20,470 nt of DNA from Actinomycetes bacterium (GCA_021817065.1 JAKAWH010000054.1:1-20470); one strand, 5' to 3'; shown: positions 27 through 20,379, counted from the first letter of the stretch. Program-made: numbers and translations. Notes: a model not told the origin generated them from the sequence alone.

Positions 27-101
27 GGTGGCCGTAGCTCAGTTGGTTAGAGCGCCAGGTTGTGGCCCTGGAGGTCGGGGGTTCGAGTCCCCTCGGTCAC
101 C
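27..101 (+). tRNA. tRNA-His (anticodon GUG)
   Basis: Cloverleaf read by hand. Acceptor GTGGCCG/CGGTCAC has 7 bp. D-stem is GCTC/GAGC. Anticodon stem is CCAGG/CCTGG with loop TTGTGGC, giving anticodon GTG. T-arm is GGGGG-TTCGAGT-CCCCT. An extra 5' G (pos 27) opposite discriminator C101 is the His-specific G-1. CCA is not encoded. Confidence 0.9.
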
Positions 102-127
102 CGAGTGAATGCGCAGGTAGGAGGGCA

Positions 128-352
128 TTAATCTCCCTGGGGCGGTTGTCTCCTCGTCTATGTTTTGGCTCTGACCCAACGGGGAACCCGACAACCGGGA
201 GGAGGGTCATCGGTGGCAGGAAGCATCCGCCTGGTCAGGGGCGACGATGTGGGAACTCCGTGTCTGCCTGGGTCGTGATTCTCGGGGAAAAGTGCGCCAT
301 CTGCATCGCAGGTTCCGTAGTACCAAGCGCCAAGCCGAGAGGGACCGGGCCC
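128..352 (+). repeat. Copy A of a ~225-bp direct repeat, 27 bp downstream of tRNA-His
   Basis: Aligns colinearly with 4151..4376. The core from about 183 to 346 (~164 nt) differs at only 3 positions (ggagggtcatcgg vs ggtgggtcatctg; ccgtagtacc vs ccgtggtacc). The 5' 55 nt are ~75% identical with a 1-nt indel. No convincing ORF. Local stems such as CAUCG...CGAUG and CUGC-AUC-GCAG are present. Confidence 0.85.
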
Positions 353-1005
353 GCCTGGTCACCGAACAGGATTCTGCGCCCCGACGATCGCGCCGGGATG
401 AACCCCAGCTCCGCATGGAGCTCCATTTGTACAGCTCTCCGATGGTGACGAACGTCAGCCACGCCCCACCATCGATCTCGGGTCCTACCGACGTCGAGGT
501 CTACGGACCGAAAAAGCAAGGCACCGCCTACAACCACGCCGGCCAGCGCGCCTACAGGCCTCACCCGGCTGTGTGGGCCGAGGCAGGCTTGGCGAGCTCT
601 CGACGTGCTGATCGCCGGTTCAGGACCGTAGCCGCTTGAGGCAGTAACCGGCTACCAAACTGAGGCGATCGCACTGCAGCCGGCATCACGAATCACAACA
701 CTAAACCTCTTGGTCGAGCGCGCCTCGGTTTCGGGTAACCGTCACCCTCTACTGGCCGGAGCCTCCGCACCAGCTACTGGTACCGCTGGTTCGGGAGGTC
801 GGCGGCTTATTCGCGGATCCAGGTCTGACGACATCGTGCGGGACATGGGTATCGACGGAATCTGTATTCCCAGGTGACGCGAATGACCGTCGAGCTCCAC
901 AGGAAGGTCGCCGAGTTCCCCAATCGGGCCCTCATCAATGCCGCACCAGTCATTGCAGGCCAAGAAAAGTGGCCCTTGCCGCACACCGTGGAAGACAATC
1001 GAAAT

Positions 1006-1034
1006 GCTCCCCTCCGCGTCAAACGGAGGGGAGC
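1006..1034 (-). terminator. Candidate intrinsic terminator on the minus strand
   Basis: GC-rich 11-bp perfect stem gctcccctccg / cggaggggagc with a 7-nt loop. On the minus strand it is followed by the U-rich tract AUUUCGAUUGUCUUC. It lies in an ORF-free region. Confidence 0.3.
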
Positions 1035-1356
1035 CAACCCGAGAGCGTTGCGAGTCACTCCGAATCACAGTCGGCACTGCACGGCAGCACCTCCTGCTGC
1101 GACGGTTCGGGGAAACCCCTGCCCTCACCTGTATTTGTCGCCGAAACAGACCGGGATCTTTCACCCCGTGGGGAAAAATCGGCACACGAGCTGAAGAATC
1201 AGTTGGTGGGTGATCACACTGATGGATGACTTGACGCCGCCGCTGACTTCTCATATGCTTCGCGTCGGGTAGACGAAGTCGAACTGCGACGGCGGCAGAG
1301 TCAACCAGTTGAATAACGGTTGACCGGGGAGCATTGCGTTCCAGAAGGGCAGGACG

Positions 1357-2103
1357 ATGACGCACCTATCATGGCTGCGTGCAGCACGAGCAGCTGGCTG
1401 CGTGGCCGCAGCTGGGGCCCTCCTCTTGTTATCCACTGGTGCTGCTTATGCTGGGCAGTATGGCACCTACAATGGTGCTGCTGCAGCGCGCTACGCGGAC
1501 ACCTACTGGAGCAATTACAACATCGACTACGCCAGCTTCGGGGGGACAGACTGCACCAATTTTGTTTCCCAGGCACTCAACTCAGGCCCAGGTAATGCGG
1601 AGGACTATGGCAAGCCATGGGAACCGACGTATCTCCAGGAGCCGTTATACAACTACCCCTCGGTGGTTGATAACCCGGGTGATCTCTCATACTGGTATGG
1701 AGAACTGACTGGTTACGGTGCCAACTACTATTCCAACACATGGACTGTCGCTCCAGACCTCTTCTATTTCCTGACCTTTTACGACGGTTCTAGCTCCTAT
1801 TTCACCTATTCCTTCGACTATTATCAGAACGGAACTGCTCCTTCGATACCACCTTCAAATGCCCTGGGCGACCCCTTCTTCTACAATTGGGATGCAAGGG
1901 ATAACGGTGAGGGAATCTACGGTATCGATCACGCCACCATCACCGCCTATGGAGGCTGGGGTACCGACGGCACCTGGGGAACCGAGGTCGATGCCCACGA
2001 CTCCAATAGACAGCACGTGTTCTGGACGTTGAGATTCGTGCAAAATCCATCGAATCCCTATTGGCCCACGGAGGAGGTATTCACCGATCATGTCGTTAGC
2101 TGA
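1357..2103 (+). CDS. Secreted putative amidase, Amidase_6 / NlpC-P60-related domain
   Basis: N-terminal signal peptide MTHLSWLRAARAAGCVAAAGALLLLSTGAAYA|GQ. Motif YADTYWSNYN...FGGTDCTNFVSQAL matches the catalytic-Cys core (GGDCTNFVSQ) of the putative amidase (Amidase_6) family. Tyr/Gly/Asn-rich mature region with a C-terminal His (IDHATITAY). RBS-like gaagggcagga lies upstream of the ATG. Confidence 0.75.
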   Translation: MTHLSWLRAARAAGCVAAAGALLLLSTGAAYAGQYGTYNGAAAARYADTYWSNYNIDYASFGGTDCTNFVSQALNSGPGNAEDYGKPWEPTYLQEPLYNYPSVVDNPGDLSYWYGELTGYGANYYSNTWTVAPDLFYFLTFYDGSSSYFTYSFDYYQNGTAPSIPPSNALGDPFFYNWDARDNGEGIYGIDHATITAYGGWGTDGTWGTEVDAHDSNRQHVFWTLRFVQNPSNPYWPTEEVFTDHVVS

Positions 2104-2887
2104 TATGAGCCACCAGTCCACTAACCGCCGACGATTCGGCCAACGAGCGCGAGGAATGCTTGTGGTGAGCGCCGTGGCAGCGGGCGCCGGCTTCGGTGCG
2201 TCACTGGGGGTCGCGCACGGACAAGGAAATGACAGTGCCAAAGAAGCCGCTGTGAAGCAAGTATTCCTGGAAGCCCAAGTTCTTGGGGAGAATGAAGGGG
2301 CACCAGCTCCAGCAGGTCTCGCCAAATCCGCCGATTGGGCAGTCCATGGAGATTCCCTCGTCCACACCAAGAACGGCGACCGCCTCGAGAACCCCGGCCA
2401 CTCTTGGGTCGACGACTCCGGTCATGTATTGGGACTCTCAGCCGCAGAGGTCGCCCAGATCACCTCCCAGCAGGATGCAGAGGCAGATGCCATCCTCGCT
2501 CCTGGCAAGATCCGCACCAACTACCTTAACGCAATCAATGGCTGGGCAAAGAAAGGTGGTGAATTGGTGTCGTCGATGAGTCCTGCTGACGCGGTGTCGG
2601 CCATCAATAGCGTGGGTCCTGTTGGCGGTGCCGAAGTGGTCAAATGGGAGAGCATCGATATTGCTGGCACCACCGCTAGCGTCCACGCGGTGATGAAGAT
2701 TTGGAACGAGAACGACCAAGCCACACTCGACGGTCAGGGGAACCTACATGTAGCCACTGAGGTGGCATCCGGATACGGCGACTCCTATGCTACCTTGCAA
2801 GAGACTCCCTCCGGCACCTGGCAAATCGTTTCCATGGATACAGAACCTTCCGATGCCAACGGCAATACTGACGTCGCTTCCGGGTAG
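2090..2887 (+). CDS. Secreted hypothetical protein with a possible Tat signal (NRRRFGQ then a hydrophobic stretch)
   Basis: ATG overlaps the stop of the upstream gene by 14 nt, which suggests an operon. N-terminus has an RR motif followed by VVSAVAAGAGFGASLGVAHG. GC3-rich codon usage consistent with neighbouring genes. No recognisable catalytic motif. Confidence 0.6.
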   Translation: MSLADMSHQSTNRRRFGQRARGMLVVSAVAAGAGFGASLGVAHGQGNDSAKEAAVKQVFLEAQVLGENEGAPAPAGLAKSADWAVHGDSLVHTKNGDRLENPGHSWVDDSGHVLGLSAAEVAQITSQQDAEADAILAPGKIRTNYLNAINGWAKKGGELVSSMSPADAVSAINSVGPVGGAEVVKWESIDIAGTTASVHAVMKIWNENDQATLDGQGNLHVATEVASGYGDSYATLQETPSGTWQIVSMDTEPSDANGNTDVASG

Positions 2888-3575
2888 CTCGACAAGGACT
2901 GCTCCCTCCGGGCGCCGACGGGGACGACTATCCAAGCTTTGCAGAACCAGCTTCGTCTGGGCCGTGGTAGCCCTGGTGACCGCCATCGTTATTGTCGTAG
3001 TTATACCCAAGCAAAGTGCGACGACAGCTGCCGGGGAGAAGTCGGAGGTCCGCGCCGCTTTAGTACGTGCGGACACCCTGCGACTCATGATCGGTTCTCC
3101 CTGGCTCGCATCTCCCTCTCATTGGTCCATCGCAACCGGCACGTCCAGGGCTTCGTGGAACACCGGTGTTGGCACCAAGCCGATCCATCCATCATCAAAC
3201 CTGCTCGGAGCGATGGGCCGTGAACAGGGCTCTCTCATCAGCCAGTGGATGGGATCGTCAGTGGCAAGCAGTACTCGGTCACAGTTGGCTTCGGCCATCG
3301 GGGTCGACACCTCACGGGAGATCTTCCCTTGGGTTGCTCAGGTCTACGGTGTGTCCACGCAAACCATTGATATATCGGGCAACCAGGCAGGAATCCGGGC
3401 GAAGGTCTTTGCATGGCAGGGAGGTACGGTTCCCACCAGAAGCGGTCCCAAGCTTCTCAAATTGCGAATGGAGCTCGACGAGTACGCAACGTTCAAAATG
3501 GTTGGTGGGCACTGGCGAGAAGTGAGCGATCGAAGCTACGAGCACCCAGTCAGCGGGAATCCGGGGAACCTGTAA
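2787..3575 (+). CDS. Single-pass membrane-anchored hypothetical protein (alternative start ATG 2853)
   Basis: Long ORF in operon with the two upstream genes. Hydrophobic helix FVWAVVALVTAIVIVVVI follows a basic stretch RRRGRLSKL. No in-frame ATG lies downstream of the preceding stop, so the start must overlap the upstream gene. Confidence 0.5.
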   Translation: MLPCKRLPPAPGKSFPWIQNLPMPTAILTSLPGSSTRTAPSGRRRGRLSKLCRTSFVWAVVALVTAIVIVVVIPKQSATTAAGEKSEVRAALVRADTLRLMIGSPWLASPSHWSIATGTSRASWNTGVGTKPIHPSSNLLGAMGREQGSLISQWMGSSVASSTRSQLASAIGVDTSREIFPWVAQVYGVSTQTIDISGNQAGIRAKVFAWQGGTVPTRSGPKLLKLRMELDEYATFKMVGGHWREVSDRSYEHPVSGNPGNL

Positions 3576-3604
3576 ACCACGGGGGTACATCGAAGCCACT
3601 ATAG

Positions 3605-3634
3605 CCATCTCCGAGTATATCGACTCGGAGATGG
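3605..3634. promoter_or_regulatory. Perfect 12-bp inverted repeat CCATCTCCGAGT-(ATATCG)-ACTCGGAGATGG overlapping the start codon of the zinc-ribbon gene
   Basis: The arms are exact reverse complements. ATG 3631 lies inside the right arm. No U-tract follows, so an operator or translational hairpin is more likely than a terminator. Confidence 0.45.
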
Positions 3635-4011
3635 CGGGTGTGGGATGCTCGGTACCTATGCCCAAGACACCCCCAGCACGACTTGCCTCCTACGAGCACC
3701 GCTACCGAGATCTCGCCCGGCAGCTCTCTGAGATCGGCTGGATCGCTTCGGGCAGCGTGGCGTACCGCCCCGAGCGCTGTGGCAAGTCGAACTGCGCCTG
3801 CCGCTCGGACCCCGCACGGCTACACGGGCCCTACTGGCACTTCACCGCCAAGGTCGACGGCAAGACGGTGAACAAGCGCCTTTCCGAGCGTGAAGCCCGC
3901 CTATATCAACAGTGGATCGCCAACTACCGCACGGTGCGCGCTCTCCTCGGCGAGATGCGCGAGATCGCTGCCAAGGCCCAGGCCCTGATCCTCGCCGAGG
4001 ATGACGTCTGA
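3631..4011 (+). CDS. Small CxxC/CxC zinc-ribbon hypothetical protein (conserved actinobacterial DUF-type)
   Basis: 126 aa. Motif RCGKSNCACRSD...HGPYWHFTAKVDGKTVNKRLSEREARLYQQWIANYR resembles a widespread small actinobacterial protein family of unknown function. The C-terminus is predicted helical. Confidence 0.6.
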   Translation: MAGVGCSVPMPKTPPARLASYEHRYRDLARQLSEIGWIASGSVAYRPERCGKSNCACRSDPARLHGPYWHFTAKVDGKTVNKRLSEREARLYQQWIANYRTVRALLGEMREIAAKAQALILAEDDV

Positions 4012-4150
4012 CTCCGCCCGCAACAGGCAGTGTGCCGCTTCACCTGAAACCCGCCGCCCCACCTCACGCCGCCGGGCCTGAAGTGCTTGAAACACAGGGC
4101 GAATCGGTCATCCGAGCACGTGTGAGTGCCATTTCACGCTTGATTCAGGA

Positions 4151-4376
4151 TTAAGTTCCCTGGGGCGGTTGTCTGCTCGTCTTTTTCTGGCTCTGACCGA
4201 AATAGGTGACCCAACAACCGGGAGGTGGGTCATCTGTGGCAGGAAGCATCCGCCTGGTCAGGGGCGACGATGTGGGAACTCCGTGTCTGCCTGGGTCGTG
4301 ATTCTCGGGGAAAAGTGCGCCATCTGCATCGCAGGTTCCGTGGTACCAAGCGCCAAGCCGAGAGGGACCTGGCCGC
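4151..4376 (+). repeat. Copy B of the ~225-bp direct repeat
   Basis: See copy A. Same orientation, 4023 bp downstream. Identity decays at both edges. Confidence 0.85.
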
Positions 4377-4420
4377 AAGTGGAGCGGGGGAGTGCCCAAC
4401 CCGATTGCCGACGCCGAGCT

Positions 4421-4497
4421 GGCCGATCGAGGGCCGATCGAGGGCCGATCGAGGGCCGATCGAGGGCCGATCGAGGGCCGATCGAGGGCCGATCGCG
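4421..4497. repeat. Tandem 11-bp repeat (GGGCCGATCGA)x~7
   Basis: ggccgatcga then gggccgatcga x5 then gggccgatcgc. Each unit carries the palindrome CGATCG. The 11-bp period is close to the DNA helical repeat. Intergenic, ~150 bp upstream of the XRE gene. Confidence 0.9.
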
Positions 4498-10140: not shown

Positions 10141-10174
10141 CTGCGTCCAGGCGGGCCGTTTCACGGCCGGGTGG

Positions 10175-10312
10175 CCTCAGGGGCGCCGGGTCCGGCAGGT
10201 GCGAAGGACGTTCCCTCAGGGGCGCCGGGTCCGGCAGGTGCGAAGGAGGTTCCCTCAGGGGCGCCGGGTCCGGCAGGTGCGAAGGACGTTCCCTCAGGGG
10301 CGCCGGGTCCGG
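10175..10312. repeat. 39-bp tandem repeat x3.5 (cctcaggggcgccgggtccggcaggtgcgaaggacgttc) between the convergent E1 and thioesterase genes
   Basis: Copies at 10175, 10214, 10253 and a partial at 10292. One substitution (gacg/gagg) in copy 2. The last partial copy overlaps the final codons of the minus-strand thioesterase gene. Confidence 0.9.
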
Positions 10313-10986
10313 AGGCGGTGGGCGGGTATCACCGCGAACTCACCTTCGGCTTCGCAACACGTGTGTCCCTCCTGGATCAACTTCCCTCGGCTGATCACCC
10401 GCCGCTCGTCTTTGGCAACCACCTCGGCCTCGAAGCGGGACTCGATCCCGATCAGGGTGGGGCGGAGATAGCGGACGGTCAGGCATACGGTCGGACCGGA
10501 AGTACCGGCGATCTGATTGGCCGCGGTGAGAACGATGTCGAAGGTGGAGGCGATCACCCCTCCATGAACCCACCCGGGCCCGCCCTCGTAGGCGGTGGTG
10601 AAGTGGGCGGTGCCGATCGCGAGCGGTGGGTCGAATGCGATGGTCACCGGCAGTGCGATCGGATTGAACTGGCCGACCACCGGGTCGTAGGGCATCGCTC
10701 CGTGCATGATGGTCCCGGAAAAAGGCTGACCGTCCGTCTCTCCAACCCCGGCCTTCGCTCCGGTCCCTTCTGTCTCTCCAACCCCGGCCGTCTCTCCGGT
10801 CCCTTCTGTCTCTCCAACCCCGGCCGGGTCGACGAAACGGGGGATGGGCGTATCGGGCACGAAGGAGCCCAGGAGGTCGGATATAGCGTCGATGCGGGAG
10901 ATCGCATCGGTGAGTGCTTCGGGCGGAGCAGCGCTGGTGACCGCACGGTCGATGAGGCTCCGGAGCGATTCGGCCAATCCGAACAT
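10294..10986 (-). CDS. PaaI/4HBT-family hotdog-fold thioesterase with an internal Gly/Glu/Thr-rich tandem repeat
   Basis: Motif HGGVIASTFDIVL (the conserved HGG of PaaI-type thioesterases). Start set at ATG 10986 (MFGLAESL) with ggaagg 5 nt upstream. The track ORF extends to 11085. Contains in-frame repeats AGVGETEGTGET. Confidence 0.7.
   Translation of the reverse strand: MFGLAESLRSLIDRAVTSAAPPEALTDAISRIDAISDLLGSFVPDTPIPRFVDPAGVGETEGTGETAGVGETEGTGAKAGVGETDGQPFSGTIMHGAMPYDPVVGQFNPIALPVTIAFDPPLAIGTAHFTTAYEGGPGWVHGGVIASTFDIVLTAANQIAGTSGPTVCLTVRYLRPTLIGIESRFEAEVVAKDERRVISRGKLIQEGHTCCEAEGEFAVIPAHRLRTRRP
10738..10825. repeat. In-frame 36-bp coding tandem repeat (2.4 copies) inside the thioesterase gene
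   Basis: ctctccaaccccggccNtcNctccggtcccttctgt repeated at 10738 and 10774, with a partial at 10810. Encodes GVGETEGTGETA-type 12-aa units on the minus strand. Confidence 0.85.
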
Positions 10987-11153
10987 CTCGCCTTCCCGGC
11001 CGGCCAGGATCGGATGAAAAGTGGGGCACGGAAGGAGCGGACCGCCCTCAGATGATCGTGCAGAAGTCGGCAAGGGCCCCAACATAGTTCCGGCTCGGCC
11101 GCAGAGGTACGACGACTAGGCTGAGCCCCAGGGCCCCAGAGGAGGTCGTGCCC

Positions 11154-12894: not shown

Positions 12895-14409
12895 TCAATC
12901 CTCGAGGGTCACCCGCCACTCGTAGAGGCATCCGGAGGGACGTCGCTCCACCACCGACAATTCTCCTCCGTGTTCTCGGGCTCGGCTGGCGAGCCGGTTC
13001 AGCCATCGTGCCGATGCGGGCCCCTCGGGAATGCCGACCCCGTCATCGGAGACCGAGACGACCAGAGATAGGGCATCCACGGAGATGTCGACGCCCACCC
13101 GGGTGGCCATCGAATGGCAGGCGATGTTGTGGAGGATGTCGCCCAACGCTTCCAGGAGCGCATGTCGCAACTCGGCGGAGATGTGGGAGTCGATGGGGCC
13201 GGACCAATGAAGGGTCGGCTGGAACCCCAGCTCGATGGCAGCGTGGTCCACCATGTCCCGTACCCGAGTGGTGACCGGTACCGTGCTCAGGGGGGCATGG
13301 GTGAGGTCCTCGATCTCCCGCTCCAATTCCACGATCACGTTGCGCAGATCTTCCGAAGTTGTCTCGACCCGCTCGCGCACAATTCCTGGAACCAGGGTGG
13401 CGAGCCGATCCAGACGGGCACCGATCTTGTGGAGGGTGGCGATTACCACGTCGTCGAGGTCACTGGCGATCCGATGTTGATCGCTGACCAGCCGGGAGAC
13501 CGCGAGCTGGTTCCGGGTTCGATCGGCCACCATCGCCACTGCCACGGTGGAGGAGAAGATCTCCAGCAAGGTCTGCTCCAGTTCGGTGAAATCCGGCTGT
13601 CCCGGGGCACGGACGATGGAGAGTGCTCCGATCGCCTCGCCGTCGGCCGCGATCGGCACGACGATAGCGGGACCCAGACCGAGTGCTGCCCCATCGGGGT
13701 GGACGTTGTCGGAAAGGGCGAGATCGTGTATTCGTACTATTTCCCCGGTCTCGTAGGCATAGCCGGCGGCGCTGGAACCAGGCTCCATGTCCAGGCCGGT
13801 GAGATATGCGTAGTCCTCGTCGTCCGCACCGGCGATGACCATATGGCCGAGTCGATGGCTGGGAATCGACACGGTTCCCAGCTCGGCTCCGAGGAGGAGA
13901 CGGGCCTCCCTGGCTATCTGGGCGTAGATCTCGCGGGGAGTGAGGGCCGCCAGAAGCGCCCGGTTGATCTGGCTGACCGCTAGCAGGAGCAGCTCCACCC
14001 GGCTCGCTTCGCTCACGTCGCGCACGAAAGCCCCCACGAAGCGCTGACCGCCAATTTCTATCGGAGCAAGACTTACGTCAATAGGGAAGGTTGTCCGATC
14101 GCTCCGTACTCCGGAGATCCGCAGGCCGCTTCCCATCGGTCGACGATAGGGATCGGCTGCAAAGCGGCTCCGATGGTCGGCATGGGCCGACCGTAGGTCG
14201 GTTGGGATAAGTTCCTCGACGGACATACCGGCCAAGCCACCTGGACCGTAGCCAAAAAGTACCTCGGCGGCTGGGTTGCACCGGGTGATCGTCCCGTCTT
14301 GGTCGACCACCACGATCCCGTCCGGCATAGCTTCGAAAAGAGCAGCCAGGCCGGGAAGCGCCTCGATCGCCGCTCCGCCGGACGTGAGGTCGCCGGGAAA
14401 GCCGAACAT
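12895..14409 (-). CDS. PAS-GAF sensor histidine kinase (HisKA_3 + HATPase_c; partner would be a NarL-type response regulator)
   Basis: PAS domain (PDGIVVVDQDGTI...FGY). GAF domain. H-box RIASDLDDVVIATLHKI (HisKA_3). C-terminal ATPase with DDGVGIP and GGEL motifs. Start set at ATG 14409 (MFGFPGDL). The track ORF starts at TTG 14439. Confidence 0.8.
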   Translation of the reverse strand: MFGFPGDLTSGGAAIEALPGLAALFEAMPDGIVVVDQDGTITRCNPAAEVLFGYGPGGLAGMSVEELIPTDLRSAHADHRSRFAADPYRRPMGSGLRISGVRSDRTTFPIDVSLAPIEIGGQRFVGAFVRDVSEASRVELLLLAVSQINRALLAALTPREIYAQIAREARLLLGAELGTVSIPSHRLGHMVIAGADDEDYAYLTGLDMEPGSSAAGYAYETGEIVRIHDLALSDNVHPDGAALGLGPAIVVPIAADGEAIGALSIVRAPGQPDFTELEQTLLEIFSSTVAVAMVADRTRNQLAVSRLVSDQHRIASDLDDVVIATLHKIGARLDRLATLVPGIVRERVETTSEDLRNVIVELEREIEDLTHAPLSTVPVTTRVRDMVDHAAIELGFQPTLHWSGPIDSHISAELRHALLEALGDILHNIACHSMATRVGVDISVDALSLVVSVSDDGVGIPEGPASARWLNRLASRAREHGGELSVVERRPSGCLYEWRVTLED

Positions 14410-14506
14410 CAGCGAGTCTCTTCCCGGATGCCCGCGCAACAGAAGCCGAACATCAGCGAGTCTATTCCCGGATGCCCGCGCAACAGAAGCCGAACATCAG
14501 TGGTGG
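14401..14506. repeat. 44-bp tandem duplication (2.4 copies) at the junction of the two kinase genes
   Basis: gccgaacatcagcgagtctNttcccggatgcccgcgcaacagaa at 14401 and 14445, with a partial at 14489. It duplicates the RBS-ATG-MFGF region of the downstream kinase. On the minus strand the two mini-ORFs (12 and 15 codons incl. stop) start MFGF. Their starts overlap upstream stops as TGATG. Confidence 0.85.
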
Positions 14507-15609
14507 AAGACCGTTTCCCGAATCTGGCGGATCACCCCGTCGAGGTCGGCGATCGCCTTGTCGAGCTCGTCGGATATCGACACGGGGACGAGATGGGCGA
14601 TCCCGTCCAGGTCGATGCCCAGGGAGAAGATGTGGTTGATGACCCCTGAGTGGAGGGCGCGGGCGATGCGTTCCTGGGCGGCGGTGGTGCGGAGACCGTC
14701 GAGTTCACTGCGGGCCTGACCGAGCGACTTCACCACCGCCACTGCCGAGGCGAAGACCTGGCCACGCGATACCTCCTGCTCCGAGAATGCTGGTTCGTCC
14801 CGGGTACGGGCAACGACCAGGGTTCCCATGCGCCGGTCGTTGGTGGCGAGGGGGAGGTAAACTCCTGGCCCCATCTCCAGGGCGCGGGTAGCAGGGATCA
14901 CCTCCGGATCGGCGGACATGTCATCGATGTAGAGGGGCGTGCCGGATTCCATTGCACGTTGTGAAAGGGTTCCGTCGGCGGCGAATTCGGTCCCGAGCAT
15001 CGAGCCGGCGACACCGGCAGCGGCAACCACCACGAAGTTGCCGTTGGCACTGGGCGAGGCCACATAGGAGGTGGAGGCGTCGATGAGCTGGCAGACCCGG
15101 AAAGCGGTGTGCTGGAGAATCTCGTCGGTGGGTTGGTTGGTGAGAAGCATCTGGCTGATCTCGTTGACGAAGCGGAGGAGGAATTCGTTCCGCCTCCTCC
15201 CACTCGCGCCGCGTACGAAGGCGGCGACTTTGGCGCTGCCCGCCACCGAAAAAGGTGCCAGGCTCACGTCGATCGGCAGTTCGTGTCCCTCCGCGGTGCG
15301 CCCAACCAGGGCGAGGCCCACTCCCATCGGTCGGGACGCCGGGTTGGCGGCGAAGTGGCGGCGATGCCGGGCATGGCGGGACCGGAAGCTCTCGGGGAGG
15401 AGTATTTCGATTGAGCGTCCGACCAGGTCGGCAGGCCGGTACCCAAAGAGGTCCTCGACCGCCGGATTGGCTTCCTCGATGATCCCGTCGGCATCGACCA
15501 CCACAACGGCATCGGGCGTGGCATCGAGAAGGGCACACAGGATTGTTGCCTCGCCGAGCGCGGCATCGACCCCCAGGACGTCCAGGTCCTCGACGGAATC
15601 GGGCATCAC
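14497..15609 (-). CDS. PAS-GAF-HisKA_3 sensor kinase paralog lacking the HATPase catalytic domain (truncated or pseudogenised)
   Basis: Paralog of the downstream kinase with the same architecture and similar PAS motifs. The H-box ARALHSGVINHIFSLGIDLDG is present, but the ORF ends about 25 aa after the dimerisation/phosphoacceptor helix. No ATP-binding N/G boxes. Confidence 0.7.
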   Translation of the reverse strand: MMPDSVEDLDVLGVDAALGEATILCALLDATPDAVVVVDADGIIEEANPAVEDLFGYRPADLVGRSIEILLPESFRSRHARHRRHFAANPASRPMGVGLALVGRTAEGHELPIDVSLAPFSVAGSAKVAAFVRGASGRRRNEFLLRFVNEISQMLLTNQPTDEILQHTAFRVCQLIDASTSYVASPSANGNFVVVAAAGVAGSMLGTEFAADGTLSQRAMESGTPLYIDDMSADPEVIPATRALEMGPGVYLPLATNDRRMGTLVVARTRDEPAFSEQEVSRGQVFASAVAVVKSLGQARSELDGLRTTAAQERIARALHSGVINHIFSLGIDLDGIAHLVPVSISDELDKAIADLDGVIRQIRETVFHH

Positions 15610-15826: not shown

Positions 15827-15901
15827 GCGCCTCTAGCTCAACGGCAGAGCAACGGACTCTTAATCCGCAGGTTCTGGGTTCGAATCCCAGGGGGCGCACC
15901 A
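15827..15901 (+). tRNA. tRNA-Lys (anticodon CUU)
   Basis: Acceptor GCGCCTC/GGGGCGC (7 bp, one G-U). D-arm GCTC-AACGGCA-GAGC. Anticodon arm CGGA/TCCG with loop CTCTTAA, giving anticodon CTT. T-arm CTGGG-TTCGAAT-CCCAG. Discriminator A. CCA is encoded. Confidence 0.85.
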
Positions 15902-16030
15902 AGAAGGAGCAGGGCAAAGGCCATAAATAGCGGCCTGACTCGATCCTCACTTCTCACGTTGCTATACCATGCTACACTAATCTTCCATGACCCCGGTGGC
16001 GGGGTGTAGCAAGCAGTGAAGGAGGACCTG

Positions 16031-17185
16031 ATGCGGGGGACGATGCGTCGTCGGGGGGATGCCTGGGAATTGCGCGCCTATGCCGGGCGCGATCCGGTCA
16101 CGGGCCGGAAGAAGACCGCGACCAAGACCTTTCGCGGGGGTAGCCGGGAGGCGGAGGAGGCGTTGGCAGCCTTCGTCACGGAGGTGGCCGGGGGAGGGCA
16201 CGCCGTTCAGGATGCGACGATGGGCGACCTGCTTCACCGGTGGTTCGACATGACCAAGGGAGACCTGTCCCCGTCCACGGCGAGGGAGTACGAACGGATC
16301 ATCAAGGTTCACATCCTCCCGACCTTCGGCAAGGTCCCGGTGGCCCGGCTCCGCACCGCCCAGCTCGATGCTTTCTACGCCAAGCTGCGCGACGGTGGGG
16401 GAAAGGACGGAAAGCCCCTCTCGCCCGCCACCGTCCGCCAGGTACACGCGGTATTGCGCAGAGCGTTGCGCCAGGCCGTGCGGTGGGAGTGGATCACGAC
16501 GAATCCGGCCATCCATGCCTCGCCGCCGCGGGTCACCAAGCCGCACCTGCAACCACCCTCTCCGGACGACGTGGTGGAGCTGATCGCGGTGGCCGACGAG
16601 TATGACGCCGACTTCGGGTGCTACCTGCGCGTGGCTGCGACCACCGGAGCACGCCGGGGTGAGCTGTGCGCGCTGCGATGGAGGGACGTGGACTTCGACG
16701 CGCCGGCGGTGACCATCAGTCACTCCATCGCCGAGGGGAGGGGACTGCGCCCGACGGAGAAGGACACGAAGACCCACTCGGCCCGCCGCATCGCTCTCGA
16801 TACCCTCACCGTGTCGGCATTGAAGAAGCACCGCAAGAAAATGGAGAGCCGCGCCAAGACATGCACAACGACGGTATGTGAGGACGGCTTCATCTTCTCG
16901 CGCGACCCCGACGGAGCGCGTCCCTGGCCCCCGAACGACGTCACCAAGTGGTTCATCGCTGCGCGCGCCAAGGCGGGTAAACAGAACGTTCGGCTGCACG
17001 ACTTCCGTCACTTCGCCGCGACCCGTCTGCTGGCAGCCGGTGTACCCGTGCGAACCGTGAGCGGGCGGCTCGGTCACGCCAATGCCGCGACGACATTGGG
17101 GGTCTACGCCCACTTCGTCGAGGAATCCGACCGGGACGCCGCCGACATCCTGGGCGAGCTGGTGGGCAGGGGGAAGAAGGGCTGA
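16031..17185 (+). CDS. int: Phage-type tyrosine recombinase/integrase
   Basis: Start ATG 16031 (MRGTMRRRGDAWELR) with RBS gaaggagg upstream. C-terminal catalytic residues within GARRGELCALRWRDV (Arg), LHDFRHFAATRLL (His-x-x-Arg) and LGHANAATTLGVYAH (the Tyr nucleophile). Confidence 0.9.
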   Translation: MRGTMRRRGDAWELRAYAGRDPVTGRKKTATKTFRGGSREAEEALAAFVTEVAGGGHAVQDATMGDLLHRWFDMTKGDLSPSTAREYERIIKVHILPTFGKVPVARLRTAQLDAFYAKLRDGGGKDGKPLSPATVRQVHAVLRRALRQAVRWEWITTNPAIHASPPRVTKPHLQPPSPDDVVELIAVADEYDADFGCYLRVAATTGARRGELCALRWRDVDFDAPAVTISHSIAEGRGLRPTEKDTKTHSARRIALDTLTVSALKKHRKKMESRAKTCTTTVCEDGFIFSRDPDGARPWPPNDVTKWFIAARAKAGKQNVRLHDFRHFAATRLLAAGVPVRTVSGRLGHANAATTLGVYAHFVEESDRDAADILGELVGRGKKG

Positions 17186-17737: not shown

Positions 17738-19555
17738 ATGTCCGAAGCACAACAGAGTTCCGTCATCACCGATGGTGGTCCGCAGGAAGCAGAATCTCGC
17801 TACCCCTGGGATACTCCAAGCAACGATCACCGAAGCGGCAACAGCGCGCAGACACCCGCGAGCAACGTTGCATCGCGCCGCAGGAAGTCCCCGAAAACCC
17901 CCGCCGTCCACCAACCTGCCAACCCCTACGCGCGTCCCACCGACCTCTACGGACGCACATTGGCGAGCTGGTCACGGCGCGCGATCGCCTACCTCATCGA
18001 CGCGGTGATCTTGACCGCGGTGTGGATCGGGGCCTGGATCGCTTCGGCCCTCGTAGGCACACACGCCATTGCCACCATCGTCAACATCCTCATCGACACG
18101 GTGTATTTCTCCCTGCTTGTCGCCGGGCCACGTGGCCAGACACCAGGGATGCGCACGGTCGGCATTGCGGTGCGGGATCGCAAGACAGGAGGAACCATCG
18201 GCTTTCGCCGTGCTCTTGTCCGGTCACTCACGATGGGGGTGCTCTCGGCGGCCCTCTACCTCCCCTTCGTCCTCGACTGCCTCTGGCCGCTGTGGGATAG
18301 CGAATACCAGAGCTGGCACGACAAGGCTGCCCGCACCCTGGTCGTGGAGGTGAATCCCACGCTCGGGACCTCCGGCTCCGCTCCATCTTTCACGGCCGCG
18401 ACGCCATTCACCGGGACAGGCGCGGCACCGGACTTCACCGGGACCGCTGCACGCCGGCAGATCGCGACACGCTTTCTCGCAGCGGTCCATCGTTGGCTCC
18501 ATGCGCGCACCCGGCGTTTCTGGCTTACCGCCGCCACAGTTGCAGCACTGATTGTCGTCGCAGCAGCCCTGATGGTCGCCACCACCTCCGTTCTAGCTGC
18601 CGAACACTCGCCGACGAAAGCAGCCACCGCGTATCTCAGCGCTTTATCGCGCAAAGATGCCTCCGCGATCCTTGTCTCCACCGGCATCATCGAGCCTTCC
18701 GTCATCGCCCCGGACACAGCGGTCCTGCTCTCGTCGCATGACATAGAACGGGAGCTTTCCGCCCCCGGCAACGGTCCGGGAACCATTTCCCATCTCGTCG
18801 TGGTCGCGTCCCACATACACGACAACACCGCCACGGTGACGCTCAGCTATGTAGCCGACAACCAGTCCCACATCGATACTTGCGACCTCGTGCGCTCCGA
18901 TCACACCGCCTCGGGCTGGGTCGTGCAGGTGACTCCCTCCCGTCTTGATGTGGACATACCGCAGGGAACCACTCATCTCACGGTCGCTGGCATCCCTGTA
19001 CGGACCACCGGAACCTTCGCCCACGTCTATCTCTTCCCCTCTGTCGTTACCGTCGCCACGCCTGCCACCGCCATCTTCGACGCGGCGTCCACCACCATCA
19101 ACACCACCCACCAGTCTGTGAACGCCGACTCCCAGGAAGCCTCCCTCGCTCCCCAGCTCACCGCCGCCGCGCAGTTCAGCGCCGTCAATGCGGTGGTGAA
19201 TCAGATCAACGCATGTCTCGCCGCCACGTCTCTCACACCGACCAACTGTCCCAACACTGACACTCCCGCTACGGAGTATCAGGGTGACACCTACTCAGGC
19301 ATTTCCTGGACCGGACTTGGCCAGCCCACCGCAGGCTTCACTGCCAACGTGAACAGGGCGGGCCAAGTCGAAGTGTCCGGTGCTTTCACCGCGGAGGTCA
19401 CTTACACCGACACGACACCAGGCTCATCATTTTTCGGTTCGGTCTCGGATCAAGAGACAGACGGCCCGACCTCGTGGAACTTCACTTACCCGCTCTCCTG
19501 GAACGGGACGGGATGGGTACTCGGGACCGTAAACGCGCAGACAGCGGACAACTGA
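17738..19555 (+). CDS. RDD-family integral membrane protein with a large Thr/Ala-rich C-terminal exported domain
   Basis: Pro/Ser-rich cytoplasmic N-terminus. RDD-like motif RRAIAYLIDAVIL plus 3 hydrophobic helices. A further TM helix WLTAATVAALIVVAAALMVATT. A 330-aa domain rich in T/A/V. Preceded by an AT-rich putative promoter at 17640-17737. Confidence 0.7.
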   Translation: MSEAQQSSVITDGGPQEAESRYPWDTPSNDHRSGNSAQTPASNVASRRRKSPKTPAVHQPANPYARPTDLYGRTLASWSRRAIAYLIDAVILTAVWIGAWIASALVGTHAIATIVNILIDTVYFSLLVAGPRGQTPGMRTVGIAVRDRKTGGTIGFRRALVRSLTMGVLSAALYLPFVLDCLWPLWDSEYQSWHDKAARTLVVEVNPTLGTSGSAPSFTAATPFTGTGAAPDFTGTAARRQIATRFLAAVHRWLHARTRRFWLTAATVAALIVVAAALMVATTSVLAAEHSPTKAATAYLSALSRKDASAILVSTGIIEPSVIAPDTAVLLSSHDIERELSAPGNGPGTISHLVVVASHIHDNTATVTLSYVADNQSHIDTCDLVRSDHTASGWVVQVTPSRLDVDIPQGTTHLTVAGIPVRTTGTFAHVYLFPSVVTVATPATAIFDAASTTINTTHQSVNADSQEASLAPQLTAAAQFSAVNAVVNQINACLAATSLTPTNCPNTDTPATEYQGDTYSGISWTGLGQPTAGFTANVNRAGQVEVSGAFTAEVTYTDTTPGSSFFGSVSDQETDGPTSWNFTYPLSWNGTGWVLGTVNAQTADN

Positions 19556-19806: not shown

Positions 19807-20379
19807 CGATGTGCGTATCCTAGCTCCCACTCGAGCGGTGGGACGTTATCCAGTGTCGAGTGCAGCCATACTGTGTTGTAGCGGTGGATCCAGGCGATGA
19901 TCGCCCGGCGAGCCTCTGCCCGAGTCCGGAGCCGGTAGCGGTGCACCAGCTCGCGCTTGAGTGTCGCCACAAGTGCGCTCTCCCGGCTCTCCGGGGGTGA
20001 AGTCGCGTTGCACGAGATCGGGCAGTGGAGGCGCCGTCACGTCGGGGATCGTCGTCTTGACCTTTGGCCGGCGTCCGTCCTTGGCGTAGATTCCGTTGTC
20101 GGCCATGAGGGGCTCGACGCGCTCGTGGTTGGCGTGGATCCCGTGCTGGCGAGCCAGCTCGTTGACCATCCGGGGCGAGCCGACCGAGTCGTCGATCGCC
20201 TGGACGTCGATCATGGCGTTGACGACGTGGGCGTCGTCCCATTCGGCGTCGGTCGGGCCGTGGGCGCGCTCGGTCGCCCAGTCGTAGAAGGCCGAGGTCG
20301 ACACCCCGGCTGCCTCACAGGCTGCCGCCACGGGGAAGCCCGCGACCCTCTGGCAGTCGACCCAGCAATAGCGGCTCAC
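19785..20379 (-). pseudogene. IS3-family transposase orfB with an internal deletion of ~170 codons of the DDE core
   Basis: N-terminal part (20379..~19966): RYCWVDCQRVAGFPVAAACEAAGVSTSAFYDW...MADNGIYAKDGRRPK...PDLVQRDFTPGEPGERTCGDT (the W.GDITY region). It joins out of frame directly to the C-terminal part (19970..19785): ATLKRELVHRYRLRTRAEARRAIIAWIHRYNTVWLHSTLDNVPPLEWE. The catalytic core in between is missing. Confidence 0.75.

Follow-up and report, generated by a model that had tools for sequence, protein, structure and literature searches.

Two direct repeats beside tRNA-His as probable fragments of tyrosine integrase genes in a decayed genomic island of an uncultured Acidimicrobiales bacterium

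Immediately downstream of a tRNA-His gene, in a 20,470-nucleotide stretch of DNA analysed over its full length (the window), two direct repeats of about 225 bp bracket a 4-kb gene module. What these repeats are, and how they came to flank the module, is the question raised by this locus. The initial annotation favoured a constrained non-coding element, such as a structured RNA, over anything related to attachment sites. The features on which the present analysis draws are as follows.

28-102, plus strand: tRNA-His (GUG), the integration target (ARAGORN; Rfam tRNA, 67 bits)
93-105, plus strand: candidate att core TCGGTCACCCGAG, the last 10 nt of tRNA-His plus 3 nt (12/13 copy at 4104-4116)
127-212, plus strand: non-coding arm of copy A, element side, between tRNA and int (A/B alignment)
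213-399, plus strand: 5' end of the copy A integrase pseudogene (family HMM; frame comparison)
487-600, plus strand: IS1380-family transposase remnant that covers residues ~144-175 of 477 (plasmid tblastn, E=2e-7)
1357-4011, plus strand: cargo of the tRNA-proximal remnant (Pfam; genes called in the MAGs)
1357-2103, plus strand: secreted Amidase_6 protein (Pfam)
2090/2162-2887, plus strand: exported or membrane protein, no family (Pfam; MAG gene calls)
2853-3575, plus strand: exported or membrane protein, no family (Pfam; MAG gene calls)
3631/3658-4011, plus strand: DUF6788 zinc-ribbon protein (Pfam)
4104-4116, plus strand: probable att-core remnant TCGGTCATCCGAG, 12/13 identical to the tRNA-His 3' terminus (local alignment)
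4150-4235, plus strand: non-coding arm of copy B (A/B alignment)
4236-4430, plus strand: copy B integrase pseudogene (family HMM; tblastn)
4410-4497, plus strand: 11-bp tandem repeat (VNTR) GGCCGATCGAG, about 8 units, which ends the copy B pseudogene

The direct repeat is real and located where it had been reported. A repeat search and a MAFFT alignment agree on a spacing of 4023 nt, with homology extending from 127 to 352 in copy A and from 4150 to 4375 in copy B, and the same two-copy arrangement is present in two separately deposited MAG assemblies. A repeat of such length and identity cannot have arisen by chance. Short-read Logan contigs end inside the repeats and inside the VNTR, and a break within the repeat is the behaviour of a genuine repeat. 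Some of the earlier measurements need adjustment. Copy A starts 24 nt, not 27, after the end of the tRNA, and the high-identity core (186-351 and 4209-4374; 166 nt, 97%) is gapless with five mismatches (positions 190, 203, 212, 319, and 347) instead of three. A second block with the same spacing was found at 127-159 and 4150-4182 (91%). The divergence and indels described for the 5' part were confirmed, but its identity is about 80% over 127-185 with 2-3 small indels, not ~75%; further toward the tRNA, at 93-126, the two counterparts are barely alignable.

Inspection of the reading frames reveals that each copy joins the final ~86 nt of a spacer between tRNA and integrase to the initial ~50 codons of a tyrosine integrase gene. 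The real initiation codon is a GTG at 213 in copy A and at 4236 in copy B, from which the gene reads (M)AGSIRLVRGDDV. An identical 2-nt deletion follows codon 13 in both copies, and the coding sequence then continues in the other frame (WELRVCLGRDS...RFRGTKRQAERD), while the frame opened by GTG-213 terminates at a stop at 276-278. In copy A, codons 1-13 occupy 213-251 (MAGSIRLVRGDDV), the deletion lies in a TG run at 246-252, and codons 14 to ~64 are found in the +1 frame at 250-399 (WELRV...LVTEQDSAP). The corresponding positions in copy B are 4236-4274 for codons 1-13, 4269-4275 for the same deletion, and 4273-4374 for codons 14-50. A family profile built from 61 intact relatives matches copy A with E=8.9e-17 (profile positions 12-64, nt 241-399) and copy B with E=6.8e-14 (profile positions 12-48) and E=0.013 (profile positions 155-174), the two pieces of copy B being adjacent and collinear. 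The initial annotation found no credible protein in either copy, which is wrong as to their origin, because frames, BLASTP, and the HMM identify both as integrase coding fragments. The integrase frame had been missed because the shared frameshift hid the coding sequence. Likewise, the raw ORFs across the repeats matched nothing in Pfam or NCBIfam, the fragments being short and frameshifted.

After the shared frameshift the two genes were truncated independently. The repeat ends at 352, the integrase homology of copy A runs about 30-45 nt further, and the gene breaks near codon 60, where the IS1380 debris adjoins (nt 487-582 versus WP_068796312, E=5e-10). Copy B has lost roughly codons 51-151 (about 100 codons) in an internal deletion. 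Its junction at ~4371-4376, where CTGGCC meets GCAAG, lies between two Leu-Ala-Arg codon triplets, and we infer a microhomology mechanism for this deletion. The gene resumes in the third frame at profile positions 155-174 (nt 4374-4430, RKWSGGVPNPIADAEL), a piece also matched by three relatives in tblastn (E=0.002-0.006), and then runs into the VNTR. Codons ~51-64 are thus kept only by copy A and 155-174 only by copy B. Since each copy has integrase codons absent from the other, neither was derived from the other in its present form. Neither tblastn with six integrases nor the family HMM detected a SAM-like/core-binding or catalytic (Phage_integrase, R-H-R-Y) domain in the copies, and both methods gave no integrase match beyond profile position 64 in copy A and only positions 155-174 in copy B. 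Judged from their sequences, the two copies are gene fragments and not functional members of the integrase family.

Tyrosine integrases that target tRNA genes in actinobacterial prophages and AICEs combine the domains Arm-DNA-bind_4 (PF14657), Phage_int_SAM_3 (PF14659), and Phage_integrase (PF00589). The fragments resemble these enzymes in that their N-terminal ~60 residues match the arm-binding domain and in that the gene begins ~110 nt after a same-strand tRNA, but they are pseudogene stubs without the core-binding and catalytic domains. Relatives were found by an exhaustive HMMER (phmmer) search, which yielded 81 matches with E-values down to 4e-10, and a subsequent alignment-seeded scan. 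Within the aligned segment, which most matches have at or close to the N-terminus, the real relatives share 46-70% identity, and in 5/10 of the longer matches scanned Phage_int_SAM_3, Phage_int_M, or Phage_integrase domains were present. Peptide-seeded scans of GTDB genomes, JGI metagenomes, and IMG/VR gave no confirmed relative because exact 8-mers are too specific; the 58-aa frame-1 peptide yielded no candidates in a word-indexed protein search, and tblastn against phages and plasmids found no relative. Among 80 related metagenome loci the ORF is intact in 75 (mostly 387-409 aa), and in 73 a same-strand tRNA ends 85-149 nt before the int start. The copy A start codon, 110 nt after tRNA-His, falls within this range. 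The subfamily comprises 276 metagenome loci and its tRNA targets are diverse; tRNA-His is targeted by 0/80 relatives. The source gene family is widespread, actinobacterial, and situated ~100 nt downstream of its tRNA target. The window contains an intact integrase of its own at tRNA-Lys (family HMM, E=4e-72). Both fragments align with it in register over its residues 17-56 (BLASTP, E=2e-6 for copy A and 6e-6 for copy B), a region whose Arm-DNA-bind_4 score is weak (E=0.0048) and below the curated cutoff.

The non-coding arms contain a conserved block, TCCCTGGGGCGGTTGTCT, in both copies. Further toward the gene, copy A has the boxes CCCAAC (175-180) and CCCGAC (187-192), with a spacing of exactly 12 nt, followed by a Shine-Dalgarno-like element (GGGAGGAGGG, 197-206). 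In copy B the distal box is degenerate (CCGAAA, 4197-4202), the proximal box is intact (CCCAAC, 4210-4215), the spacing is 13 nt, and the Shine-Dalgarno-like element reads GGGAGGTGGG. Paired [C/G]CCAAC boxes (AAACCCAACA) occur in the 70 nt that precede the start codon in 53/59 relatives versus 0.36% of controls, with a spacing of 12 nt in 54/54. Boxes paired in this manner are a feature of the integrase subfamily and probably represent arm-type or autoregulatory sites. Arm-type sites of lambda- and L5-type systems are also short boxes repeated in the arm next to int, and the boxes found here have the same position relative to the gene. The proposal of a protein-binding site survives for the 5' arm, where the paired CCCAAC boxes are the probable feature, but not for the core, which is coding. 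Copy A also shows a weak terminator-like hairpin plus T-run at 140-166; promoter and terminator consensus scans gave no signal above chance, including at this site. With high probability, each copy is the relic of an attachment junction, in which the element-side arm (spacer, paired boxes, and ribosome-binding site) is followed by the beginning of a tyrosine integrase gene, and both genes are dead.

The island starts directly after tRNA-His, and its left flank is core genome. The candidate att core at 93-105 has its 12/13 counterpart at 4104-4116, 34 nt upstream of copy B, and the tRNA-end equivalent in this counterpart lies 122 nt before the copy B start codon, again inside the family range of 85-149 nt. 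Matches as good were obtained in 22/2000 shuffles and 4/255 real windows (p ~0.003-0.016), and this one stands at about the 98th percentile window-wide. A single 13-nt match to the target 3' end (12/13, p~0.01) lies at the presumed internal junction and is suggestive of an att-core remnant. The repeats had been described as excluding the tRNA 3' end. This applies to the high-identity part only, because a tRNA-end copy precedes copy B, and the extension of the repeat units into tRNA sequence, which the initial annotation regarded as the sign of a conventional att duplication, is seen weakly in this remnant. Another match to tRNA-His at 10867-10880 was rejected as an att copy, as it corresponds to the tRNA interior and not to the 3' end.

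The initial annotation suggested an integrated module without an integrase for the segment between the copies. The segment is indeed such a module with no working integrase of its own, but the repeats themselves are integrase leftovers. Pfam scans of ORFs detected no intact integrase, conjugation, or replication domain between the copies. The first three cargo genes have a GC content of 0.54-0.59 versus ~0.65 in the flanks, and none of the cargo genes was found within 4 kb of the relatives' integrases. To the right of copy B follow genes for an Xre protein, an aminotransferase, an aldehyde dehydrogenase, and an E1 dehydrogenase with normal GC, so that this flank looks like core genome; an attR of the older element was not found there. 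The VNTR differs in copy number between the two MAGs, with 4 fewer units in L003. The locus is an ordinary decayed genomic island beside tRNA-His that carries the scars of mobile DNA, and not a new RNA element. Like other scars of genomic islands it has a frameshifted, truncated int by a tRNA, IS debris, and low-GC cargo; unlike these, it has two copies that share the inactivating mutation.

Most likely, the locus arose by tandem accretion of two related integrative elements at tRNA-His, both of which decayed. A first element would have inserted at the tRNA-His 3' end. A second, related element would later have integrated there as well, or entered by recombination via the homologous int region, and would thereby have displaced the first element's junction with its att-core copy 4 kb downstream. 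Both elements would have decayed, and gene conversion or homologous exchange would have made the int 5' ends (186-352, 97%) alike and carried the frameshift from one to the other, with the arms closer to the tRNA remaining divergent. Divergence is indeed uneven along the repeat (127-185 versus 186-351, Fisher p=1e-4). This was recognised before and read as a sign of a constrained non-coding element, but it points to a mosaic or gene-converted history and not to selective constraint on an RNA, and the integrase 5' ends were probably kept near-identical by gene conversion. A frameshift common to two independent elements calls for such an extra event, or for a second integration without a cognate integrase. 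The missing attR right of copy B and the lack of tRNA-His among the targets of the 80 relatives also speak against this history. As public assemblies contained no empty site or single-copy variant, we infer the order of events. Exact-protein look-ups of the amidase, Xre, and aminotransferase retrieved only contigs that carry the island or are broken in the repeats or VNTR, and the anchor gene 5' of tRNA-His was found only in distant Acidimicrobiales MAGs (56-62% identity), without synteny or tRNA-His.

The identical 2-nt deletion would be explained most simply by a common dead ancestor. Thus it is possible, if rather unlikely, that only one element was involved, whose already frameshifted int region, reaching from the att core at least as far as codon 174, was doubled on the spot, either through unequal crossing-over or through tandem duplication of the island. 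The two units would then have suffered different deletions, with no second integration. The 97% identity of the core and the missing attR or second-element body right of copy B would fit this scenario. However, a single recent duplication predicts uniform divergence, whereas identity ranges from barely alignable (93-126) through 80% with indels (127-185) to 97% (186-351), and the box region differs in spacing and in the state of the distal box. Even this scenario would need an additional step of replacement or conversion.

The arm block and a candidate core persist in both copies, each with at least one perfect box, and the enclosed segment has no integrase of its own. The copies might therefore remain active as the attL and attR ends of a non-autonomous cassette, to be excised and moved by a related integrase acting in trans, in line with the established concept of CIMEs (PMC5704250), and an intact integrase of the same family exists at tRNA-Lys. 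This is improbable, because the core has only 13 nt with one mismatch, the distal box of copy B is degenerate and the spacing 1 nt off, and no excised or empty variant appears in public assemblies. Moreover, the tRNA-Lys integrase, the sole intact one in the window, is diverged (~33% identity to the relatives overall, 43-47% to the fragments in the arm domain), targets another tRNA, and has a spacer in which no paired boxes were seen by eye. An exact-protein look-up of this enzyme and of the DUF6788 protein, at the chosen start codons, returned no record. As relics of two accreted elements, the repeats would have no present function of their own and could at most allow RecA-mediated recombination to remove the 4-kb segment. 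Very doubtful is a role of the short ORFs that restart at ATG 247 and 4270 (MWELRV...). Translated as stand-alone arm-binding peptides, they could bind the CCCAAC boxes and, for example as a decoy or immunity factor, interfere when related elements arrive at tRNA genes and integrate or excise there; the near-identity of the cores would then be due to selection instead of gene conversion.

That a structured regulatory RNA, whether an sRNA or riboswitch-like (ZTP-like), had been duplicated here was suggested by the high conservation of the 166-nt core in seemingly non-coding DNA and by two short motifs recalling ZTP boxes. This reading is rejected as extremely improbable. The family profile (E=9e-17 and 7e-14) shows that the core codes for part of an integrase, and its homologues elsewhere are the N-termini of integrase genes, intact at 75/80 loci. 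The motifs are conserved codons: CCGCCTGGTCAG is part of I-R-L-V-R (codons 5-9), and GGGTCGTGA sits within the L-G-R-D motif of the arm-binding domain. Rfam scans of both copies, permissive filters included, gave nothing better than noise at E~9 and no ZTP match. Folding energies do not improve on those of dinucleotide shuffles (MFE z = +1.68, -0.69, and +0.93), and the folds predicted for A and B differ. Scarcely credible, too, is a duplication by misassembly, despite the MAG source and the contig breaks inside the repeats and VNTR, because the copies differ at defined positions, in their flanks, and in deletion structure, both MAGs show the arrangement, and a genuine repeat also yields such breaks.

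The repeats are a familiar type of feature. For tRNA 3' ends, tandem accretion with subsequent decay has been described as common, with tandem and CIME remnants among the ICESt1/ICESt3-related islands of Streptococcus thermophilus and in IME/ICE tandems (PMC5704250). Like these, the locus lies on the 3' side of a tRNA and has an integrase-less segment between co-oriented junction sequences, an internal junction with a probable copy of the target 3' end, signs of decay, and cargo of atypical composition. It differs in that the main repeat consists of the arm and int 5' coding region, not the att core, whose copy matches at only 12/13 nt, and in its host, an uncultured Acidimicrobiales bacterium and not a Firmicute. 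Its value is mainly that of a correction, as a frameshift that hid the integrase frame explains the supposed conserved non-coding or RNA element. The locus also illustrates cleanly, for an uncultured Acidimicrobiales lineage, how an island accretes and decays at a tRNA gene: IS debris and a VNTR are present, one deletion is of the microhomology type, and the pseudogene copies have probably undergone gene conversion. As a by-product, the tRNA-adjacent int subfamily and its 12-nt-spaced boxes may modestly aid the annotation of integrative elements in Actinomycetota from peat and soil metagenomes.

The two direct repeats that follow tRNA-His and bracket a 4-kb segment are two stubs of a dead integrase gene with their att-side arms, and these stubs mark a decayed, probably composite genomic island at this tRNA. 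The features concerned are as follows (forward-strand coordinates).

28-102, tRNA-His
127-352, repeat copy A, co-oriented with copy B
487-600, fragment of an IS1380-family transposase, after the break of copy A
4104-4116, candidate att remnant, TCGGTCATCCGAG, matching the last 10 nt of tRNA-His and the next 3 nt at 12 of 13 positions
4150-4375, repeat copy B, co-oriented with copy A
4410-4497, 11-bp tandem repeat GGCCGATCGAG, about 8 units, into which the copy B pseudogene runs
16016-17185, intact tyrosine integrase, directly after tRNA-Lys

The direct repeat reported in the initial annotation was confirmed at its place, with small corrections to the coordinates of the copies, the number of core differences (five), and the identity of the 5' part (80%). 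The copies are spaced by exactly 4023 nt. Their core (186-351 and 4209-4374) aligns without gaps at 97% identity, with mismatches at 190, 203, 212, 319, and 347, and the 5' part (127-185 in copy A) contains small indels. The source MAG contig (GCA_027318265.1) and a second MAG (GCA_027388455.1) show the same layout, the only difference being the copy number of the 11-bp repeat. This repeat is a VNTR, because the second MAG has four units fewer; short-read contigs break within it.

In frame +1 the core reads MWELRVCLGRDSRGKVRHLHRRFR(S/G)TKRQAERD, a peptide whose in-register alignment with the intact tyrosine integrase covers residues 17-56 of the latter (E=2e-6 and 6e-6), a stretch that the Pfam arm DNA-binding domain matches weakly. 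Word-seeded searches of proteins, GTDB genomes, JGI metagenomes, IMG/VR, phages, and plasmids retrieved no confirmed relatives of the repeat peptide. HMMER, run exhaustively over 1.84 billion representatives, returned 81 hits, among which the real relatives share 46-70% identity across the matched stretch. In most hits this stretch lies at or near the N-terminus, and five of the ten longer hits scanned contain Phage_int_SAM_3, Phage_int_M, or Phage_integrase domains. The related proteins have the N-terminus MAGSIRLVRGKDVWELRV; from GTG at 213 and 4236, the repeat encodes (M)AGSIRLVRGDDV in a frame different from that of the remaining core. An identical 2-nt deletion in the TG run of both copies (GATGTG[TG]GGAA, 246-252 and 4269-4275) joins this GTG-start frame to the second integrase frame. 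Run over the six reading frames of the entire window, a family profile made from 61 distinct full-length relatives matched copy A at profile positions 12-64 (nt 241-399, E=8.9e-17) and copy B at positions 12-48 (E=6.8e-14). Apart from two longer hits, whose matches are not of the clean single N-terminal kind, the 81 HMMER representatives (P0003-P0081) are 44-337 aa long, and none has full integrase length. Similarity to the family fades partway along several of those read, as a frameshift or truncation would make it do. The short representatives could stem from fragmentary assemblies or mean that integrases of this family often decay.

Scanning JGI metagenomes with an alignment as the seed yielded 276 relatives, and the following locus counts rest on the 80 loci fetched. 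Of these, 75 have an intact integrase ORF, mostly of 387-409 aa, and in the other five the ORF is cut off by the contig end. A same-strand tRNA (Lys, Arg, Thr, Glu, Ile, Met, Ala, Gln, or Val) lies 85-149 nt upstream of the integrase start in 73 of the 80 loci; in the window, the gap from the end of tRNA-His (102) to the integrase start (213) is 110 nt. Paired boxes with the consensus AAACCCAACA recur in the spacers of the relatives; they occur in 53 of the 59 distinct upstream regions vs. 0.36% of control windows and are spaced start to start by exactly 12 nt in all 54 cases. Copy A has both boxes 12 nt apart (175-180 and 187-192); in copy B the proximal box (4210-4215) is perfect and the distal one, at 13-nt spacing, is degenerate. 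Given these family-typical boxes and the tRNA-to-integrase spacing, the non-coding part of the repeat can be identified as the element-side arm beside the integrase gene. The periodicity and position of the boxes, together with the presence of an arm-binding domain, suggest that they probably are arm-type or autoregulatory binding sites. The boxes lie 30-70 nt upstream of the integrase start in the metagenome loci (L019-L098) and at 175-192 and 4197-4215 in the window, and an inverted box copy follows within 25 nt in 28 of the 54 cases.

The two genes are broken differently. Integrase homology in copy A extends to about codon 60-64 (nt ~381-399) and outlasts the repeat end by 30-45 nt. The IS1380 relic beyond it retains about 32-38 of 477 aa, in the frame of the copy A integrase stub. 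In copy B the break follows codon 50, and directly after it a third frame (4374-4430) encodes RKWSGGVPNPIADAEL, corresponding to profile positions 155-174 in the linker that precedes the catalytic domain (HMM E=0.013; tblastn with three relatives, E=0.002-0.006). In the profile search of the window, only the intact integrase and copies A and B score better than this segment. Since codon 50 is directly joined to these positions, copy B is an integrase gene that lost about 100 internal codons. The junction (CTGGCC|GCAAG) falls between two family-conserved Leu-Ala-Arg triplets, which suggests a microhomology-mediated deletion. Codons kept in copy A are absent from copy B and vice versa; thus, neither copy derives from the present form of the other, and both are descendants of longer integrase genes. 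The candidate att remnant lies 122 nt before the copy B start codon, inside the family spacing range. The match is modestly significant (p about 0.01 without a positional prior and, as a rough estimate, 0.003 with it), and the arms between the remnant and the repeat align poorly (54%).

Tandem accretion and decay at tRNA 3' ends is a well-described process (PMC5704250), and we infer it as the best-fitting scenario at tRNA-His. An older element, of which only copy B is left, would have been followed by a related one placed between it and the tRNA, bringing copy A and a low-GC cargo (a secreted Amidase_6 protein, two exported proteins, and a DUF6788 protein). Gene conversion, or Campbell-type entry by homologous recombination via the 5' region of int, may explain the 97% core identity and the shared frameshift. 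The order of events is inferred rather than proven, because no empty site or single-copy variant was retrieved from the genomes and public contigs searched. Local duplication of one element could also have produced both near-identical cores, but we regard this as rather unlikely; divergence along the repeat is non-uniform (Fisher p=1e-4), which is at odds with one recent duplication that then decayed neutrally. A decoy or immunity role for the stubs, as genes of free-standing arm-binding peptides, is highly improbable. The duplicated structured RNA favored initially was rejected: Rfam searches, including permissively filtered ones of the copies alone, gave nothing better than noise (E~9) for either copy and no ZTP hit, the minimum free energies do not surpass those of dinucleotide shuffles (z = +1.68, -0.69, +0.93), the predicted folds of the copies differ, and the supposed ZTP-like boxes are integrase codons for I-R-L-V-R and L-G-R-D. 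The locus represents a fresh instance of a known structure type in an uncultured Acidimicrobiales bacterium.

A further integration site lies at 15827-17185, where tRNA-Lys (CUU) is followed 114 nt later by the intact 389-aa integrase, which broadly belongs to the same family (HMM E=4e-72) and is ~33% identical to the relatives; no paired CCCAAC boxes were seen on reading its spacer. This region probably is a second island, because an RDD-family membrane protein (17738-19555) and an N-terminal fragment of an IS3-like transposase (19846-20379, minus strand) follow the integrase. Elsewhere, 39-bp (3 copies) and 18/36-bp tandem repeats (10170-10312 and 10730-10837) are located between an E1 dehydrogenase gene and a minus-strand ORF (10294-11085). 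A 44-bp tandem duplication in perfect register (14399-14486, 98% identical) sits where two adjacent paralogous PAS/GAF sensor genes meet (12895-14439 and 14497-15609, minus strand); these genes have a 64-nt segment of 70% identity in common as well.
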